A DNA stretch of 64,000 nt from Staphylococcus phage sv_nwjns2, in the sequence record PQ819472.1; one strand, written 5' to 3'. Positions 60,812 through 61,304 of the stretch are shown one piece after another. The stretch's first letter is position 1; each line of letters begins with the position of its first letter. The notes under the pieces are model-generated. The model worked only from the letters and a program-made list of their open reading frames with translations. It was not told the DNA's origin and did no database searches. Position numbers and translations under genes: made by a program.

Positions 60812-60823
60812 AAAATTTATATA

Positions 60824-60860
60824 AACCGCTTCGGATTAAATTCTTGAAGCGGTTTTTTTA
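60824..60860. terminator. strong bidirectional intrinsic terminator
   Basis: AACCGCTTC-N13-GAAGCGGTT followed by T7. Confidence 0.8.
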
Positions 60861-60874
60861 TGTAAAATTTATTC

Positions 60875-60903
60875 TTGACAAATGTATTAAAAAATGAGAT
60901 AAT
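60875..60903 (+). promoter_or_regulatory. consensus promoter with no cognate ORF (locus B)
   Basis: TTGACA-N17-GATAAT with extended TG; paralog of 58696. Confidence 0.7.
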
Positions 60904-60977
60904 AGAGTGACGACTTTTTTTAGTATAGAAATAATATTATATAAAAAAGTTATAGATTTTTTTAGGGCTCCAAGTCC

Positions 60978-61006
60978 ATTATATCAATTTTTCTACTGGT
61001 TGTCAA
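60978..61006 (-). promoter_or_regulatory. consensus promoter, minus strand (locus B)
   Basis: Reverse complement reads TTGACA-N17-TATAAT; +1 region GGACTTGGAGCCC. Confidence 0.7.
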
Positions 61007-61060
61007 TACTTTCTTTTTTTATATAATAATTTAATTATCTTAAAGATACCGTCCACTTCC

Positions 61061-61089
61061 ATTATCTCAAATTTTGCCCCTAAAGTCAA
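61061..61089 (-). promoter_or_regulatory. promoter, minus strand (locus B)
   Basis: Reverse complement reads TTGACT-N17-GATAAT; +1 region GGAAGTGGACGG. Confidence 0.65.
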
Positions 61090-61135
61090 GAACTTTCTTT
61101 CAAATAATTTATTTAAAAAAAGTTTATAAAAAGGG

Positions 61136-61164
61136 TTGACTTATTTTGTACTATAGTGTAATAT
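61136..61164 (+). promoter_or_regulatory. orphan promoter
   Basis: TTGACT-N17-TAATAT; no ORF before the next promoter. Confidence 0.6.
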
Positions 61165-61231
61165 ATAAAGTGTAGTAAGGAAGCGGAGGAAATAACCTAA
61201 AAAAAGAATTTAAAAAACTTTTAAAAAGGTG

Positions 61232-61260
61232 TTGACAAACTTCCGAATACATGATAATAT
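61232..61260 (+). promoter_or_regulatory. strong early-type promoter with an upstream A-tract
   Basis: AAAAGGTGTTGACA-N17-TAATAT with extended TG. Confidence 0.7.
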
Positions 61261-61304
61261 TAAGATAGTTAGAAAAACAAAAAAACGAAAAGGAATTGAT
61301 AATT

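Follow-up and report, generated by a model that had tools for sequence, protein, structure and literature searches.

The 64,000 nucleotides of Staphylococcus phage sv_nwjns2 (PQ819472.1) analyzed here, called the window below, contain a promoter-rich intergenic interval of 494 bp (about 60812-61304). This interval, locus B, separates a 126-amino-acid (aa) gene from a 73-aa gene. A second interval of this kind, locus A (58585-59105), lies directly upstream of TreN (59106-59264). When 58600-61300 was compared with phage records by megablast, 254 records matched, and every one was from Staphylococcus. The closest matches were phiSNIID (98.3% identity) and Stab21 (97.5%), both of which belong to Kayvirus (Herelleviridae, Twortvirinae), and the matching region lay within their annotated long terminal repeat, among the Tre genes. 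These matches identify the window as the long terminal repeat of a phage K-like Staphylococcus myovirus of the genus Kayvirus. Locus B and its flanks comprise the following features:

60431-60811, + strand: upstream early gene, 126 aa, phrog_3543 (PHROG E 1.3e-46), function unknown; its stop codon is the left edge of locus B
60824-60860, both strands: terminator hairpin, the expected 3' end of the minus-strand RNAs
60875-60903, + strand: promoter +P(a), TTGACA-17-GATAAT with TG, 11/12; start inferred near 60910; repeat family D4
60904-60954, + strand: GAAGTG-type leader, AGAGTGACGAC-T7-AGTATAGAAATAATATTATATAAAAAAGTTATA
61006-60978, - strand: promoter -P(b), perfect TTGACA-17-TATAAT with TG, 12/12; start near 60971
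61007-61060, - strand: short transcribed segment of -P(c), which starts with GGAAGTGGACGG; inverted copy of the +P leader (repeat families I1 and I3)
61089-61061, - strand: promoter -P(c), TTGACT-17-GATAAT with TG, 10/12; start near 61054
61136-61164 (to 61195 with leader), + strand: 'orphan' promoter +P(d) with a remnant leader, 9/12; start expected near 61171
61232-61260, + strand: promoter +P(e), TTGACA-17-TAATAT with TG, 10/12, belonging to the downstream gene; start expected near 61267; repeat families D1 and D2
61305-61526, + strand: downstream early gene, 73 aa, phrog_8721, function unknown

Promoters were scanned with the consensus -35 TTGACA, a spacer of 17 ± 1 bp, -10 TATAAT and an optional extended -10 TG, and were scored out of 12. 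All five sites placed in locus B by a preliminary description of the sequence were recovered at the coordinates listed, and all were of the sigma-70/sigma-A type (9-12/12, with TG in four). From 57000 to 64000 there were 68 promoter-like sites, compared with 41.6 ± 6.2 in shuffles. Strong matches piled up in the last 8 kb of the window, and those on the minus strand were confined to it. The start regions GGAAGTGGAGCCC, GGACTTGGAGCCC and GGAAGTGGACGG, which had been proposed to be shared with locus A, were found and are of the GGA(A/C)(G/T)TGGA type; GGACTTGGAGCCC (60977-60965) belongs to -P(b). Only three promoters in the 64 kb had such a start, all on the minus strand and in loci A and B. +P(a) and -P(b) face each other, and their inferred start sites are ~61 bp apart. 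The leader of +P(d) kept GGAGG with no start codon after it, and +P(e) is followed by the standard ribosome-binding block AAAGGAATTGA. The pattern AGAGTGACGAC-T7-AGTATAGAAATAATATTATATAAAAAAGTTATA occurred exactly twice in the window, against 0 expected by chance. At least five copies of the GAAGTG-type leader were present in the IMG/VR contig IMGVR_UViG_2974596821_000001 (L008 below), one of three contigs returned by a scan of IMG/VR with this pattern, a number insufficient as a survey.

The hairpin at 60824-60860 had been described as a strong bidirectional terminator. It is real, and on the plus strand it is strong, with -16.4 kcal/mol followed by U7 as in an intrinsic terminator. On the minus strand it reached -14.0 kcal/mol with an interrupted U tail (UUUAUAUAAAUUUUUU) and is thus weaker. 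It was unchanged in eight co-linear relatives. The minus-strand RNAs ending there, expected to be 120-200 nt long and free of ATG, are predicted at about 150 and 235 nt, and the longer one holds a single AUG at 60979.

Locus B is a paralog of locus A, as had been proposed. Three blocks aligned with E values of 1e-14 to 5e-18, namely 58659-58776 with 60838-60954 (73% identity), 58910-59003 with 60913-61008 (76%) and 58918-59102 with 61007-61194 (66%), and the repeat families D3, D4, I1 and I3 agreed with them. A promoter-plus-leader unit of about 75 bp recurred directly (58716-58776 and 60894-60954, 84% identical) and in inverted form (I1, 58726-58770 with 61015-61059, 76% complementary); a further inverted repeat, I3, paired 60919-60948 with 61015-61044. 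The minus-promoter unit was present in three copies (58955-59003, 60960-61008, and 61043-61091). +P(a) is the paralog of the locus A promoter at 58696-58725, -P(b) that of 59001-58973 (family D3), and +P(d) with its leader (61136-61195) that of the TreN promoter and ribosome-binding site (59047-59105). The +P(d) region also resembles the snc003 promoter cassette of phage K (window 59268-59330). The order +,-,-,+ was common to both loci, as first described. The spacing was not, since the minus promoters were offset from the first plus promoter by 103 and 186 bp in locus B and by 173 and 277 bp in locus A. Both minus promoters of locus B resemble the outer minus promoter of locus A (59001-58973), and the inner one (58897-58869), together with the structured RNA behind it, has no counterpart in locus B. 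On these alignments the paralogy is real, yet the arrangement was not copied one to one.

No plausible open reading frame (ORF) was found at locus B, either in the ORF list of the window or on the predicted transcripts, in agreement with the preliminary description, which had called it non-coding. Promoters account for nearly all of the interval. The predicted minus-strand RNAs contained only ORFs of at most 14 codons without a Shine-Dalgarno sequence; the AUG at 60979 opens a 5-codon ORF, likewise without one. The plus transcript had one 5-codon ATG ORF. It opens with a GTG frame (60907-61026, 39 codons) that has no ribosome-binding site, and the equivalent frame stops at differing points in K, T-SE-E2, SAP01, and L008. 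A type I toxin-antitoxin system was considered for this hydrophobic frame and rejected on these two grounds. No tRNA or tmRNA was detected in the window by ARAGORN.

What lies behind homologous promoters in related phages gave the locus its context. At the equivalent of locus A, phage K (NC_005880.2) carries gp013 on the minus strand, a protein of 162 aa with HNH_3 and NUMOD4 domains, whose homolog in MSA6 is named TreM, 'putative homing endonuclease'. Its promoter, TTGACATTAAGACCGAATTATTATATAAT, appears with an expressed transcription unit among the promoters tabulated in the supplements of two phage K RNA-seq studies (PMC9241854; PMC11598898), and the window has the same promoter:

58973-59001, - strand: outer minus promoter of locus A, with the same sequence as the promoter of gp013/TreM in phage K; no ORF behind it here

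K and the window aligned almost without differences over the upstream terminator, the plus promoter and its leader, then diverged, and became identical again exactly at the outer minus promoter. Phage K reads TATAAT-GGAAGTG-ATACCAAAAAAGGAGGAGTAAAAAAATG (gp013) where the window reads TATAAT-GGAAGTG-GAGCCCTAAAA. The homology breaks at the transcription start. The stretch between measures about 60 bp in the window and about 510 bp in K. The phage ISP record of 2011 already annotated all three promoters (plus, inner minus and outer minus) together with the terminator.

At locus B itself, vB_SAP01 has a 161-aa HNH gene (HNH_3, E 8e-19) on the minus strand behind a homologous promoter. In T-SE-E2 a 217-aa HNH gene (phrog_374, E 3e-72), also on the minus strand, is driven by a homolog of -P(c); the homology between T-SE-E2 and the window is lost where the leader ends (60954). 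In both relatives the homology is regained at the -10 box, which in T-SE-E2 is that of 61089-61061. This indicated that three different HNH genes, those of K, vB_SAP01 and T-SE-E2, use these minus-strand promoter slots. A small RNA with its own promoter occupied locus B in S25-4, JDYN, and T-SE-E2. TreM was at least 95% identical in 106 records, the HNH-free junction of locus A was contiguous in 86 of 240 records, and the window type of locus B was contiguous in 69 of the 251 matching records. About 190 K-like records have no locus B at all and match only with the leader at their own locus A. Close relatives thus carry an endonuclease gene with its own promoter at the site, as a presence/absence polymorphism. 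In the window neither an intact nor a decayed HNH ORF was present there: tblastn with the three HNH proteins of the relatives gave a best E value of 1.6 and nothing substantial in locus A or B. The preliminary description had named a degenerate remnant of a gene present in relatives as a finding that would refute its own view. Essentially this is what was found, with homologous promoters driving HNH genes or a small RNA, except that decayed coding sequence is absent. For that reason locus B is described as an emptied cassette, and the pseudogene reading was rejected for lack of an HNH coding remnant and of a plausible ORF. The homology of its promoters to promoters that drive genes is plain.

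Here, we propose, with a probability of about 60%, that locus B is one allele of a promoter-bounded cassette hotspot in the Kayvirus terminal repeat, an allele that carries no payload. Both loci would have been assembled, in either orientation, from the ~75-bp unit of a consensus host sigma-A promoter and a GAAGTG-type leader. In relatives, the minus-strand units transcribe payloads, either a small pseudoknotted RNA or free-standing genes for HNH homing endonucleases. Whatever lies between the conserved promoters, ribosome-binding blocks and terminators would be exchanged or lost by recombination at these elements, and in the locus B of the window nothing but the promoters would be left. The 'orphan' at 61136-61164 would be a copy of the TreN promoter and ribosome-binding site minus the ORF. 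The promoters would fire early through the host RNA polymerase, and the two minus-strand RNAs would be unstructured, antisense to the +P(a) transcript and stopped at 60824-60860. Collision between polymerases from +P(a) and -P(b) would be the main physical consequence.

The history of locus B is mosaic, as seen from homology breakpoints between the window and 20-odd fetched loci. Nineteen of the 25 breakpoint clusters were intergenic, against 41% expected (binomial P = 4e-4); of the remaining six, five were no more than about 20 bp away from a gene end and one (60639) was inside a gene. Many breakpoints fell directly after a -10 box or within the repeated ribosome-binding block GAAAAGGAATTGAT-N5-ATG, which stands ahead of several genes (59401-59447, 59824-59870, 60400-60446, and 61274-61320), and one at 60803 was found in several relatives. 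In G15, P108 and related phages, a join inside such a block accounts for the absence of the 170-aa gene (59849-60361). In the terminator hairpins between the small Tre genes (59764-59784, 60359-60383, 61541-61561, 61748-61771, and 61992-62018), the loop or stem includes the TTGACA that is the -35 box of the next promoter, so that terminator and promoter form one compact repeated cassette, and breakpoints between phages cluster at these cassettes. Another empty cassette was noticed at 59268-59330, where an ORF-less promoter and then the hairpin GGAAGCGGTTGACCGCTTCC lie between TreN and the next gene; it corresponds to the snc003 promoter of phage K (K promoter no. 8, K 6189, early).

The conservation of promoters relative to the sequence between them had been suggested as a check. 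Near-identical relatives offered too few substitutions for a strong test of the hexamers, and the more divergent PG-2021_86 was used for this reason. Between it and the window, 3 of 60 hexamer positions differed, compared with 34 of 85 in the spacers (p = 6.5e-7) and 52 of 294 elsewhere; the hexamers are kept and the spacers diverge. PG-2021_86 is co-linear across locus B but has other promoter copies in the same places. At the position of -P(c) it carries the exact HNH promoter of SAP01, with no HNH gene behind it. Across the alleles of locus B, four to seven promoters occupied the interval. By analogy, this pattern and the breakpoints fit promoter-bounded cassette exchange and cycles of gain and loss of homing endonucleases.

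Several points weigh against an emptied cassette. In the eight co-linear phages, 0 of 60 hexamer columns varied, compared with 24 of 433 elsewhere (p = 0.04), and hexamer conservation in alleles without ORFs could mean that the promoters themselves are selected. The import of young, functional promoter copies explains this conservation as well. The window-type allele persists in 69 records, and Stab21, phiSNIID, P108, G15 and SAP1 are among its carriers. Minus-strand reads of phage K (snc002) adjoin the locus A element, and some intergenic minus-strand RNAs of this region are therefore real (PMC9241854). Since the window keeps no HNH coding remnant, loss, as opposed to a site that was never occupied, is deduced from the mosaic structure. 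We infer that the promoters are active in this phage, that the direction of change was loss and that the locus lacks a function.

The ORF-less array of alternating promoters may itself be the selected unit, tuning or insulating the early transcription of the flanking genes, a possibility that we regard as doubtful. It would act either by face-to-face interference of +P(a) with -P(b) or by back-to-back coupling of -P(c) with +P(d) and +P(e), for example if antisense or read-through polymerases were halted there, or if local negative supercoiling strengthened the divergent promoter; these versions and means were together given the same low weight. The convergent geometry of +P(a) and -P(b) agrees with such a device. 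So does the distance of 46-47 bp between the -35 boxes of the divergent pair, which is held at locus A (59001/59047), at locus B (61089/61136) and in S25-4 (951/997). The conserved hexamers contrast with variable spacers and start regions, and alleles made of different promoter copies show the orientation pattern +,-,-,+ again. However, most matching Kayvirus records, phage K included, lack locus B and its flanking genes, the recent import of functional copies accounts for the conservation equally well, and the number of promoters is not fixed. It is similarly a tentative idea that the array was selected as a collision or supercoiling device for host-takeover genes, or as a set of portable recombination linkers. 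In the latter version, the array may let Kayviruses exchange early genes, homing endonucleases and the small pseudoknotted RNA.

The convergent pair recalls the pR and pL promoters of coliphage 186, whose start sites are said to lie 62 bp apart, as Callen et al. reportedly found in 2004. In both cases two strong promoters stand face to face at nearly the same distance, and the resemblance is geometric only. Unlike in 186, no regulator gene or developmental decision is attached to locus B.

The preliminary description had suggested that the minus-strand RNAs are the functional product of the locus. In this explanation, small regulatory RNAs of about 130-230 nt would be made, and strong, consensus-like promoters with a terminator behind them speak for it. 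In addition, small non-coding RNAs were reported from the terminal repeat of phage K, among them snc002 (minus strand, locus A) and snc003 (orphan plus promoter; PMC9241854), and a structured minus-strand RNA exists at locus A. The RNAs predicted at locus B did not bear this out. Those of the minus strand were no more stable than shuffled sequences (z = -1.3 and -2.1); over both strands z ranged from -1.2 to -2.1, and the terminator was the sole stable structure. No Rfam family matched the window at gathering score, and none matched locus B even at E <= 1. The sole match at that level on 58500-61400 was a chance one to mir-684 (E 0.44), at locus A. The start regions of the RNAs also differ between alleles (GGAAGTGGACGG versus TGGTATGATAAG), the RNA body is the antisense of the +P(a) leader and promoter, and locus B is missing from most records. 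Small RNAs as the product of locus B are therefore thought rather unlikely. Since the predicted RNAs are unstructured apart from the terminator and differ in their 5' regions from allele to allele, they are probably by-products.

The structured RNA of locus A provided a contrast to these transcripts. In locus A, the segment bounded by the plus promoter and the inner minus promoter diverged sharply between phages and kept its base pairing. It contains the following element:

58805-58850, - strand: pseudoknotted small RNA element with covariation, behind the inner minus promoter of locus A (58897-58869)

Stem 1 pairs 58850-58846 with 58828-58824 (AGUGG/CCACU), and stem 2 pairs 58842-58836 with 58811-58805 (CCCGCCU/AGGUGGG), including an invariant G.U pair. 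As the 5' arm of stem 2 sits in the loop of stem 1, the fold is an H-type pseudoknot. Covariation was assessed over 12 copies from Kayvirus and a Mammaliicoccus phage, with five haplotypes of the variable triplet of stem 2. The helices took the forms AGYGS/SCRCU and NNNGCCU/AGGUN'N'N'. Of the alignment cells, 99.3% were paired, and both sides had changed in 6 of 12 pairs; none of 500 shuffles reached these values, and slid controls gave 39-51% pairing. On the plus strand, an A.C mismatch would stand in place of the invariant G.U pair, which points to the transcript of the inner minus promoter. A conserved GRGAAAGASC motif follows the stems. With the covariance model, the window gave a single hit (58776-58874, minus strand, 103.9 bits) and locus B gave no hit, a further point against an RNA product there. 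The locus A RNA had no match in Rfam, which was searched at gathering score over the whole window and at E <= 1 on 58500-61400, where the chance mir-684 match was the only one. Its conserved 14-codon frame was rejected as a coding candidate, as it has no ribosome-binding site and its conservation is explained by the RNA helices.

In K, T-SE-E2, and V1SA15, this RNA directly follows HNH endonuclease genes on their downstream side, and it occurs also without them. In phage K, snc002 lies directly 3' of the element on the same strand (PMC9241854). The K counterparts of the plus promoter, the inner minus promoter and the pseudoknot are at K 4963-4992, K 5135-5163 and about K 5069-5114, respectively. 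In divergent 'type 2' copies, the second helix is a plain hairpin, G-NN-GCCC-AAGM-GGGG-N'N'-C, with covarying NN pairs and the same G.U. One IMG/VR Kayvirus (IMGVR_UViG_2974596821) has three of them, and further ones were found where S25-4 and JDYN have their equivalents of locus B. Their positions are as follows, where L013 and L017, like L008, denote fetched sequences:

L013 1097-1176, - strand: type 2 RNA copy
L017 854-933, - strand: type 2 RNA copy
L008 2057-2140, 3342-3424, and 5984-6063, - strand: type 2 RNA copies

A plus-strand RNA, AUAGAUAUAAGGUUAAGGAGCCCAAGACC..., which follows an extra promoter in Sa87, VL14, EW5, and SAP01, looks like an inverted relative. With neither an HNH gene nor the pseudoknotted RNA, locus B is a reduced form. 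Term searches of PMC9241854, PMC7698491, PMC11598898, PMC8952766, and PMC6445280 returned no description of locus B, of the orphan minus promoters or of the pseudoknot.

The empty allele might instead be kept as a homing site. The start region TGGAGCCC would then be the recognition sequence of an HNH enzyme, cut in endonuclease-free phages at co-infection. The endonuclease-free alleles at both loci and L008 share TGGAGCCC right after the point where the HNH alleles diverge, and the presence/absence pattern is typical of free-standing homing endonucleases. The motif varies, however, to GGAGGGT in Sa87 and SAP01 and to GGAGACC in PG-2021_86, and since three unrelated HNH proteins fill the slots, one shared target is unlikely. 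This explanation was considered distinctly unlikely.

The payload-free cassette was compared with known systems. The treL-treM-treN region of phages K, ISP and MSA6 (gp012-gp013-gp014) is the ortholog of locus A and a paralog of locus B. It shares with locus A the plus promoter and its leader, the inner minus promoter and the terminator, and the outer minus promoter is identical. In K-type phages, unlike in the window, the TreM HNH gene stands between the two minus promoters and locus B is absent. Neither locus of the window contains an HNH gene, and in locus B the inner promoter with its RNA is missing as well.

Phages such as T4 carry free-standing homing endonuclease genes, for example the seg and mob genes. 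The HNH genes of Kayvirus are like them in being intergenic, with their own promoter, a presence/absence polymorphism and different endonucleases in one slot. Unlike them, the window has a promoter shell only, with no endonuclease ORF or pseudogene, and homing in Kayvirus is putative. The PeSL promoter-stem-loop cassettes of T4-type phages, which Arbiol et al. are said to have described in 2010, are early-promoter and hairpin units flanking small ORFs in a hyperplastic region. As in PeSL, repeated promoter and stem-loop units bound small ORFs here and rearrangement junctions lie at the units (19 of 25 clusters intergenic; families D1-D3). The sequence is unrelated, however, and the host and virus family are others; the Kayvirus units are also inverted in convergent and divergent pairs, and some are empty. 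The PeSL comparison is an analogy only and not a claim of membership.

The snc002 and snc003 RNAs were defined in phage K by prediction and read coverage (Finstrlova et al., 2022; PMC9241854). Like them, locus B belongs to the ORF-less intervals of the same terminal repeat, and the snc003 cassette resembles 61136-61195. Unlike them, it has no counterpart in K. In kind, locus B is an ordinary orphan early-promoter cassette in its endonuclease-free allele.

Some further observations concern the surroundings. The depositor labels of the flanking early genes disagree, and PHROGs lists both the 170-aa and the 126-aa protein as of unknown function. For the 170-aa protein (59849-60361) the Stab21 record notes 'NAD+--asparagine ADP-ribosyltransferase (COG5585)', and a homolog of the 126-aa protein (60431-60811) is labeled 'SAM hydrolase' in vB_SAP01. 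An A/T motif, ATAAAAAAATTATA, and the near-palindrome T6-ATAT-A6 were found right after stop codons and within leaders, in both orientations (58585-58606, 58932-58953, 60803-60824 and many further intergenic sites). Possible roles for them are as bent DNA, as an UP element or as a weak terminator. In L008, imperfect A/T-rich direct repeats (TATAGGATAATAGG... and TTATAGAATAA...) occurred at 400-900, within about 2.5 kb that has no ORF of at least 45 aa, and downstream of another copy of the GAAGTG-leader promoter. This ORF-poor stretch may be near the genome end or the boundary of the terminal repeat.

What appeared to be a duplicated 'promoter-only RNA module' is, in the reading favored here, probably the empty form of a slot that is filled in other therapeutic Kayviruses by homing endonucleases or a small RNA. 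An orphan promoter need not mean an RNA gene, and caution is needed when one is met in such genomes. The more useful by-product of the analysis was the covariation-supported pseudoknot RNA of locus A and of locus B in some relatives, which lies near HNH genes and has no match in Rfam. For the genomics of phage therapy, the early region of the Kayvirus terminal repeat is one that is remodeled by recombination at its promoters and ribosome-binding blocks.

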